Origin: Eledone cirrhosa
Taxonomy: Eukaryota
Direction: 5' to 3'
DNA length: 64,000 nucleotides
Assembly (NCBI GenBank): GCA_964016885.1
Contig: OZ024745.1
Location: 50,034,001-50,098,000, forward strand
Position numbers and translations under genes: made by a program. Every line of letters starts with the position of its first letter. The stretch's first letter is position 1. Of this stretch, positions 17,061-18,762 are shown in pieces. The notes beneath the pieces are model-generated. The model saw only the letters and a program-made list of their open reading frames with translations. It did not search any database and was not told the origin of the DNA.

Positions 17061-17285
17061 GCATAAATAATCACAAGTGTTCCTTATATTGCTCGGAAAG
17101 AGTTTTGGGGGTTAAATACACATCAAGGTTCATTGCTCGCAAAAATATCTTGTTTTGATTTTGCAGCAGGTCAAGGGAGGTAACTCTGGTCGGTGTTAGG
17201 GCAGTCTTTCCCGGACAATTTTTTTTACATATATATATATATATATGCGTGCATATATGTATGTGTACCTGTATGCATATGTGTA

Positions 17286-17353
<68 letters not shown>

Positions 17354-17541
17354 TTGAAAAAAATGAAAACGAAATTTCATTTCTCACTCTTAGTATGGCA
17401 CTTACTTAAATGTAAGTATGTATGTATACGTACATACATACATTTAAGTAAGTGCCATACTAAGAGTGAGAAATGAAATTTCGTTTTCATTTTTTTCAAC
17501 TTATCGTTTTCGGTATGCCTGACCGATTTAACTCACTCAAT

Positions 17542-17593
17542 ATGCAAATTAGGCTGCTCAGCCGTTAATTTTCATAAGGAAAGTATATACTTT
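17542..17593 (+). promoter_or_regulatory. Candidate snRNA-type promoter (octamer, PSE-like, TATA); repeated at 18048-18099
   Basis: Exact ATGCAAAT 17542-17549; ctcagccgttaattttcataag loosely PSE-like; TATATA 17584-17589 about 35 nt before the HHR. Spacing is more compact than vertebrate U6/H1. Confidence 0.4.
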
Positions 17594-17622
17594 CGAACGT
17601 TCAACTATCTGGCAGATGGGTA

Positions 17623-17667
17623 AACGGTGCTGATGATAGCTAACAAGCTTGAAACTAGTACATCGTT
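17623..17667 (+). ncRNA. Canonical-core type I hammerhead, unit 1
   Basis: aacggtg-CTGATGA-t-agct/aaca/agct-t-GAAA-CTAG-TA-catcgtt. Confidence 0.92.
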
Positions 17668-17844
17668 CCTGTGTCAGTGTTGAACAAAAAGGTGACGTGG
17701 TTGCCTTAACACCGTATGGCATAAATTCAGGCTGTTTGGTTTGTTGACAAACAAACGAACAAAGCGGCGTTATAATAAACGTCCGCTAAACTGATGCGTG
17801 CATATATGTATGTGTACCTGCGTGTAAGTGTATATGTATGTGTA

Positions 17845-17894
<50 letters not shown>

Positions 17895-18128
17895 TGCTAC
17901 TGTACGTCTGTATACATATATGTATGTACGTATACATACATACTTACATTTAAGTAAGTGCCATACTAAGAGTGAGAAATGAAATTTCGTTTTCATTTTT
18001 TTCAACTTATCGTTTTCGGTATGCCTGACCGATTTAACTCACTCAATATGCAAATTAGGCTGCTCAGCCGTTAATTTTCATAAGGAAAGTATATACTTTC
18101 GAACGTTCAACTATCTGGCAGATGGGTA

Positions 18129-18173
18129 AACGGTGCTGATGATAGCTAACAAGCTTGAAACTAGTACATCGTT
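18129..18173 (+). ncRNA. Canonical-core type I hammerhead, unit 2
   Basis: Identical to unit 1, 506 nt downstream. Confidence 0.92.
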
Positions 18174-18330
18174 CCTGTGTCAGTGTTGAACAAAAAGGTG
18201 ACGTGGTTGCCTTAACACCGTATGGCATAAATTCAGGCTGTTTGGTTTGTTGACAAACAAACGAACAAAGCGGCGTTATAACAAACGTCCGCTAAACTGA
18301 TGCGTGCATATATGTATGTGTACCTGCGTG

Positions 18331-18369
<39 letters not shown>

Positions 18370-18443
18370 GTATGTATATATATATATGCGTGCTACTGTA
18401 CGTCTGTATACATATATGTATGTACGTATACATACATACTTAC

Positions 18444-18489
<46 letters not shown>

Positions 18490-18563
18490 GTAAGTATGTA
18501 TGTATACGTACATACATATATGTATACAGACGTACAGTAGCACGCATATATATATATACATAC

Positions 18564-18602
<39 letters not shown>

Positions 18603-18604
18603 CA

Positions 18605-18644
<40 letters not shown>

Positions 18645-18762
18645 TGCTACTGTACGTCTGTATACATATATGTATGTACGTATACATACATACTTACATT
18701 TAAGTAAGTGCCATACTAAGAGTGAGAAATGAAATTTCGTTTTCATTTTTTTCAACTTATAT

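Follow-up and report, generated by a model that had tools for sequence, protein, structure and literature searches.

The non-LTR retrozymes described from metazoans, including coral, mussel and axolotl, are tandem non-coding repeats of ~170-400 nt, each unit of which holds a single type I hammerhead; their GC content is low, they number thousands of copies and their predicted circle is highly self-paired; RNA circles have been demonstrated and Penelope-like elements (PLEs) occur in the host genomes (PMC7229834). Dependence on PLEs was proposed in that work, while a 2020 review describes metazoan retrozymes as seemingly lacking a promoter or a motif pointing to their mobiliser (PMC7761336). Vertebrate retrozymes have since been argued to be non-autonomous PLE derivatives, the evidence being co-occurrence and pLTR homology in 35 species of vertebrates, insects and a coral, with local amplification favoured as the origin of their arrays (Li, Clavereau, Pollet, bioRxiv 10.64898/2026.07.22.740005). 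Two questions are still open in the retrozyme literature: what drives the transcription of animal retrozymes, and by which element and mechanism they are inserted. In EN+ PLEs, including Poseidon PAc, two adjacent internal RT start sites bound the tail in vitro (PMC11167929). The tail occurs at one end only, together with an inverted truncated 5′ copy, and the Neptune, Hydra and Naiad clades are biased towards (TA)n (PMC8557442). Tandem hammerhead repeats are further known from newt satellite 2, which has a dimer-type helix III, and from Schistosoma Sm-alpha, with an snRNA-type promoter and Pol II in the former and an internal Pol III promoter in the latter (PMC2220036, PMC6765202).

The locus analysed here lies in a 64,000-nt stretch of Eledone cirrhosa DNA (GCA_964016885.1, contig OZ024745.1, 50,034,001-50,098,000, forward strand), hereafter the window, and repeat copies were sought in the 3.0 Gb assembly. 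A previous sequence-only reading of this DNA had described two near-identical, non-coding 506-nt units with identical hammerheads, flanked by inverted partial copies and surrounded by (TA)n. Both type I hammerhead motifs were recovered in place, identical in sequence and spaced exactly 506 nt apart (Table 1), and the unit cores without TA (17421-17825 and 17927-18331) share 99.0% identity. The unit has a GC content of 34%, and in 17421-18448 the longest ORFs that begin with ATG measure 39-89 aa, most of them running across TA repeats; a credible ORF is absent from this region, in keeping with the non-coding character claimed. One inverted partial copy is the short left arm of insertion 1, which ends at the 'long' site, while the two-hammerhead right arm ends at the 'short' site; the other was found at 18485-18625. 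The claim of surrounding (TA)n held for the outer ends of the insertion, but the unit itself includes some of this (TA)n. The internal copy of the 58-nt tail has both end sites read through and carries an A/U-rich hairpin before the long site. A scan against Rfam at gathering thresholds gave no matches in the whole window.

Table 1. Features of the hammerhead repeat locus and its neighbour, in window positions
Feature	Positions	Strand	Remarks
Neighbouring young coding PLE copy, 5′-truncated	15332..16735	-	own hammerhead ~15429; one short and one long end; candidate mobiliser
Remnant of unit 3′ part, grading into (TA)n	17245..17300	+	
Insertion 1, two-armed	17349..18448	.	outer ends of both arms meet (TA)n
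Inverted left arm of insertion 1 (unit tail and head)	17349..17434	-	long-type outer end 17349; fold-back junction ~17430
12-mer, unit 1	17541..17552	+	matches -77 to -79 motif of host U6, U6atac and RNase MRP; 5′ arm of predicted RNA hairpin
TATA-like element	17584..17590	+	43 nt after 12-mer; within palindrome
Hammerhead 1, type I, helix I extended	17609..17677	+	core fold 17623-17667; U10.1.U11.1; predicted cleavage after 17660
Internal interrupted (TA)n tract of unit	17820..17897	+	centre of long predicted hairpin
58-nt 'tail' between fixed end sites	17953..18010	+	short site after 17952, long site after 18010
12-mer and TATA-like block, unit 2	18047..18096	+	0.55% variable (61 loci), 3.7% for whole unit
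Hammerhead 2, type I, same sequence as hammerhead 1	18115..18183	+	core 18129-18173; predicted cleavage after 18166
Insertion 2, without hammerhead	18485..18760	.	inverted arm, short end 18485; direct arm, long end 18760

Insertion 2 is either a separate insertion or the second half of one complex event. Its left arm is an exact copy of the TA tract of unit 2, suggesting one complex event or local re-insertion. A near-perfect 318-bp palindrome with its centre in (TA)n occupies 18308-18625, and the remnant upstream of insertion 1 is probably a separate truncated insertion.

The exact hammerhead-core pattern matches the genome 12,466 times, while the reversed control pattern has no match, and the motif is therefore not due to chance. 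The first 100 core matches form 59 clusters, which extrapolates to ~7,000 loci. A DNA search with the unit returned 1,597 candidates, and the 40 full-length matches that were scored are 99-100% identical, on five contigs, while identity falls to ~78-87% in older subfamilies of this young family, which we term family A. Arrays in this family reach 15 units per arm, and the dispersed copies and number of core matches rule out a single-locus duplication, which the sequence-only reading had named as an alternative when proposing a genome-wide check of copy number and tandemness. A sister family B (loci L248-L250 and L255-L274) has units of 466-470 nt, 69% identity to family A over ~120 nt and 5,496 exact matches to a 25-nt probe, with a record of 32 hammerheads in one insertion. 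Together the two families amount to ~18,000 motif-bearing copies, or ~9 Mb if all are full units, and thus form a real component of the genome. Contigs from four of six sequencing runs (X1, 4,819 pieces; X4, none; X5 and X6, two each) are too thin for a claim on other species.

One type I hammerhead per tandem unit, the absence of LTRs around a unique interior, a GC content below 45-50% and dispersed insertions consistent with retrotransposition are features of non-LTR retrozymes and are all found here, while the RT and GIY-YIG ORF that lies between the pLTRs of an autonomous PLE is absent from the unit in the inspected loci. On the sequence features examined, the unit is a metazoan non-LTR retrozyme. 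Low GC content, thousands of copies, PLEs in the genome and a highly self-paired predicted unit circle (z=-10.9, in part owing to the TA hairpin) are further likenesses to the metazoan families, whereas the units are longer, at 466-540 nt. Fixed two-site ends of PLE type, (TA)n targeting and inversions, all evident in this family, go beyond the description of metazoan retrozymes in PMC7229834. The unit length lies within the 51-972 bp given for the retrozymes of the 2026 preprint (bioRxiv 10.64898/2026.07.22.740005).

The predicted fold of the hammerhead comprises a helix I of 7 bp in the core, extendable over the flanking sequence (Table 1), a helix II of 4 bp with a 4-nt loop and a helix III of 2 bp within a 6-nt palindrome at 17654-17659, in agreement with the palindromic helix III noted previously. 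Pairing of this palindrome with that of a second copy is predicted at -4.8 kcal/mol, a dimer-type helix III like that of newt satellite 2, and the cleavage positions proposed earlier are correctly placed on the predicted fold. The core is not fully canonical, however, since U.U stands in place of G-C at 10.1/11.1, a mismatch. U10.1.U11.1 is found in natural hammerheads, where it is the best-tolerated mismatch (PMC3088659). The family B core has the canonical G10.1-C11.1, and between families A and B the proximal helix I, the extended helix I and helix II have all changed on both sides, with a double compensatory change in helix II within family B. The NUH triplet is kept in 86/86 family B cores (H = U in 71, C in 10 and A in 5), while conservation of the family A core partly reflects how the loci were selected. 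This covariation supports the ribozyme fold and points to a maintained ribozyme. The extended helix I and short helix II distinguish it from the minimal hammerheads of PLEs.

The outer ends of the insertions, read in hammerhead sense, fall at two fixed sites 58 nt apart, which correspond to window positions 17952 ('short') and 18010 ('long'). The inner ends vary, and many insertions consist of two arms placed head to head with short overlaps. In a survey of 53 position-ordered loci (40 at 8-10 kb and 13/30 overlapping 3-kb loci), 78 of 87 ends meet (TA)n, 35 being short and 43 long, with nine calls unclear; the youngest variant alone has 361 exact junctions of the long end with (TA)n. Where both ends could be called, 17/18 position-ordered loci have one short and one long end, as do 12/12 of the best-match set plus the window, giving 29/30 for family A (p=3e-8). 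The sole long/long pair, locus L183, has a rearranged tail and is still counted as an exception. The same pairing was observed in 12/12 insertions of family B, counted by eye, one of them with an unclear long end (22 loci), and in 15/16 of the young coding PLE neighbouring the retrozyme in the window (31 loci), the exception being locus L276 with two long ends 5.4 kb apart. An A/U-rich hairpin shortly before the long site is common to the tails of family A, family B and the coding PLE. The target is (TA)n, in which a target-site duplication is unreadable. Some insertions (L160, L169 and L174) end inside the TA tract that the unit contains, a third type of end that is primed by homology, and at L040:4930-4965 the inversion junction is filled by four tandem copies of a ~13-nt piece, which suggests repeated engagement of the template.

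PLE-mobilised elements are characterised by two fixed sites for the 3′ end, a one-ended tail, an inverted truncated arm and a microsatellite target, and since the ends of the unit carry the PLE tail signature and share it with a coding PLE, mobilisation by PLE machinery is well supported by these footprints. They agree with the earlier suggestion of a non-autonomous ribozyme element copied by PLEs. The two internal start sites bounding a tail are paralleled in EN+ PLEs, including Poseidon PAc (PMC11167929), as is the microsatellite target in their (TA)n-biased clades (PMC8557442), and 5′ truncation, the inverted arm, the one-end tail and a hammerhead are likewise common to both (PMC11167929, PMC8557442). 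The differences are the absence of an ORF and a tail of 58 nt, compared to 30-40 nt in published elements and ~90 nt in the local coding PLE. The conclusion coincides with that of the 2026 preprint, but is drawn from footprints, and the unit has no homology to the pLTRs compared.

The young coding PLE has intact frames of 806-809 aa (808 aa; L239 and L240), a long-helix-II hammerhead and a tail of ~90 nt, and 64,538 candidate copies, with 94-99% protein identity among the 150 scored. We take it to be a PLE from its RT, Cys-linker and GIY-YIG-like motifs and its pLTR, hammerhead and tail structure, as Pfam has no family for the ~800-aa frame, nor for four of the five window ORFs. Two of its full-length copies show no non-repeat similarity to the unit beyond one 12-nt word (E 0.54). 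A second family with a 713-aa frame (9211-11301 (-) in the window; many open copies, 39,153 candidates) also has no sequence in common with the unit, and a retrozyme copy is merely nearby in 2/30 of its loci. Partner homology in the pLTR or 3′ end is therefore lacking in the two PLE families compared, and as other (TA)n-associated PLE families are present in the genome, the young coding PLE is one candidate partner among others. At locus L162, arms of both kinds are fused, the PLE arm having a long and the retrozyme arm a short end, a single case that suggests a shared insertion reaction, although it could alternatively represent an insertion with deletion.

The structure of the arrays bears on the template. 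Median divergence across 246 segments is 0.26% within an arm, 0.53% between the arms of an insertion and 4.0% between loci, and in old arrays the divergence within arms equals that between arms (5.3% and 5.0%, respectively, at L173), indicating that old arms did not grow by later local duplication. Only one arm-fixed column was found across eight testable loci, while rare variants are fixed in both arms at four loci. The six youngest arrays contain no subset-shared variants and 27 singletons, and the older arrays (27 loci) contain 65 and 238, respectively. Internal TA tracts are alike in pattern and length across both arms at several young loci. The units of one insertion are thus near-identical in both arms, with star-like divergence, which fits arrays copied in one step from a single homogeneous template such as a circle; a homogeneous multimer may also be compatible with this uniformity. 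The subset-shared variants of the older arrays count against a circular template. An origin in one step differs from the local amplification favoured in the 2026 preprint (bioRxiv 10.64898/2026.07.22.740005).

We consider it probable that a PLE which targets (TA)n copies this family of non-coding tandem hammerhead repeats in trans, the template probably being a cleaved and circularised unit-length RNA. A tandem unit would be transcribed across the next unit, possibly from a U6-like block upstream of the hammerhead. By analogy with known retrozymes, hammerheads paired through their palindromic helix III would then cleave, and circles of ~500 nt would be closed by a host ligase. A PLE protein would nick both (TA)n strands, and RT would start at the two internal sites 58 nt apart, one per strand, in accordance with the observed ends and their pairing. 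Each cDNA would span 0 to 15 units (31 in family B) before stopping at a variable position, and the two would be joined head to head, often with the short overlap seen in the insertions.

The main competitor of this circular template, which we regard as unlikely yet worth serious attention, is a linear multimer that arises by transcription of existing arrays, stays uncleaved and is likewise mobilised by a PLE, with a slow or dispensable hammerhead and circles as a side product. Insertion by the tested PLE in vitro needed no hammerhead cleavage and used uncleaved RNA (PMC11167929), and 8/9 Xenopus retrozyme dimers showed no cleavage in vitro (bioRxiv 10.64898/2026.07.22.740005). Helix III is weak, with 2 bp, position 10.1/11.1 is U.U, overlapping arms are possible on a multimer as well, and the two internal TA tracts of the window are unlike in pattern and in length (78 and 68 nt), so that a single monomer circle fails to explain the window's own insertion. 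A multimer would, however, require transcripts of up to ~7.5 kb, or 15 kb in family B, that extend across recurrent T4-T7 runs. The homogeneity of the young arrays, with locus-specific tract lengths in both arms and no subset-shared variants in the six youngest, and the covariation of the helices also argue against it.

Far less probable is that the unit belongs to a coding PLE as its pLTR or 3′ end, nearly all copies of that PLE being truncated, perhaps with a rare master copy, a possibility raised in the sequence-only reading. The PLE-type ends, tail, inversions and hammerhead would be expected of such an element, and loci L162 and L078 adjoin pieces of PLE ORFs. These contacts involve different PLEs (77% alike) at different break points, however, and in the 53 ordered loci the unit continues 5′ of each hammerhead as far as a break of variable position. 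A PLE ORF was present in just 1/24 of the 5′ flanks inspected, and perfect arrays of 15-32 units have no ORF. Satellite-like spread at the DNA level, through unequal crossing-over, replication slippage or fold-back in (TA)n, could account for tandem arrays, internal (TA)n, the palindrome and some subset-shared variants in old arrays, but is already largely refuted, and equally improbable, given ~59 separate loci per 100 matches, two fixed end sites that are each used once per insertion, as in a coding PLE, and equal divergence within and between the arms of old arrays such as L173.

A candidate promoter is located 5′ of the ribozyme. Its 12-mer is unchanged in the inspected young A, old A and B copies and matches, with 0-1 mismatches, the upstream element that the host has at three distinct U6 promoters, at the top U6atac gene and at its only RNase MRP gene. 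This count of five loci omits, as a matter of judgement, two of seven U6 and seven of eight U6atac loci without the motif, which look like promoterless retrocopies; also omitted are a U6 locus with a motif-displacing insertion and a U6 locus repeating the L146 array. At the corresponding place the 12-mer is present in 0/10 U1 and U2 loci (seven U1 and three U2), which have instead a different motif near -57, and its background is two unrelated matches in 1.53 Mb, or ~7e-4 per unit. Within the 50-nt block from the motif to the TATA-like element, 15/2,750 locus-positions are variable, in loci that were not chosen on the block. The distance between the two elements, 43 nt in the unit, is 47-49 nt in host Pol III genes (4-6 nt closer in the unit), and the distal element of host snRNA genes is absent from the unit. 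Both points speak against promoter function, as do four T4-T7 runs on the sense strand. Promoter spacing determines the choice of polymerase in other animals. Host spacing would place the start at ~17611-17620, in the 5′ arm of helix I. The T7 run that precedes the long site is broken in several subfamilies, for which reason it was rejected as a conserved Pol III terminator.

The block is predicted to fold into two hairpins that are kept in all three lineages, and RNA structure could therefore explain its conservation, in which case the 12-mer may be just a conserved RNA hairpin. Sequence recognition is favoured since the 5′ arm of the hairpin is fixed while the 3′ arm changes. We regard it as about evenly balanced, on these comparisons, that the block functions as a promoter, which may have been captured from host small-RNA genes, whichever polymerase it would serve. 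With its match to the host U6, U6atac and MRP upstream element rather than to U1 and U2, the candidate motif differs from the newt and Schistosoma promoters, which are likewise internal to the repeat and located 5′ of the ribozyme (PMC2220036, PMC6765202).

A wider proposal, which we put forward tentatively and rate below an even chance, is that of a retrozyme superfamily with an internalised host U6/MRP-type promoter. The tandem layout would put the promoter inside the RNA of the previous unit, so that one read-through between two hammerheads would yield a promoter-bearing circle. A PLE dimer would copy this circle from two staggered starts, in opposite directions, by rolling-circle target-primed reverse transcription, with no kinship to the ends of the PLE. 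If true, the family would amount to a viroid-like replicon in the genome that expresses itself and has a complete and testable cycle.

In the open literature, as represented by titles and the openings of abstracts outside subscription journals, Repbase and supplements, no octopus or other cephalopod retrozyme family like this one was found, nor was a one-of-each end rule reported for a retrozyme or a U6-type motif within one. The class of non-LTR retrozymes is already known and its PLE origin is already argued in the 2026 preprint, while this family is new. Its countable footprint ties retrozyme insertion to the two-site priming of PLEs, and with it come a candidate enzyme whose frame is intact, a recognition region delimited to 58 nt and a candidate promoter, making both open questions on retrozymes directly testable. 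As its footprints render the mobiliser, template and promoter testable, the family is more informative than most retrozymes.

Several further observations concern the host promoters and the other elements of the window. The upstream regions of the host snRNA loci (L129-L146, L199, L207-L217 and L254) display a promoter grammar in which U6, U6atac and MRP have the 12-mer at -78 and a TATA at -30, U1 and U2 have a different 5-mer near -57, and a distal motif near -255 to -270 is shared; this may be of use for guide-RNA expression in this animal group. At L201 (G000:C4:220114945-220115060), a U6atac retrocopy immediately follows (TA)n, a hint that the (TA)n-targeting machinery may copy other small RNAs too. 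Additional PLE-like frames are present in the window at 4591-6516 (-) and 59582-61535, the latter made up of an inverted pair (59582-60403 and 60540-61535). A further hammerhead-like motif, in which the first core strand has six nucleotides and helix III is an 8-nt palindrome, occurs in a short piece between (TA)n flanks at 16968-17228 (-), its core starting from 17058, and is probably the pLTR of another PLE family. A (TA)n-embedded element with a terminal hairpin is located at 18852-19546 (-), with similar ends in L078, L093, L114 and L196, and its end resembles a Helitron 3′ end. Furthermore, a short motif is common to several elements, just before their ends.
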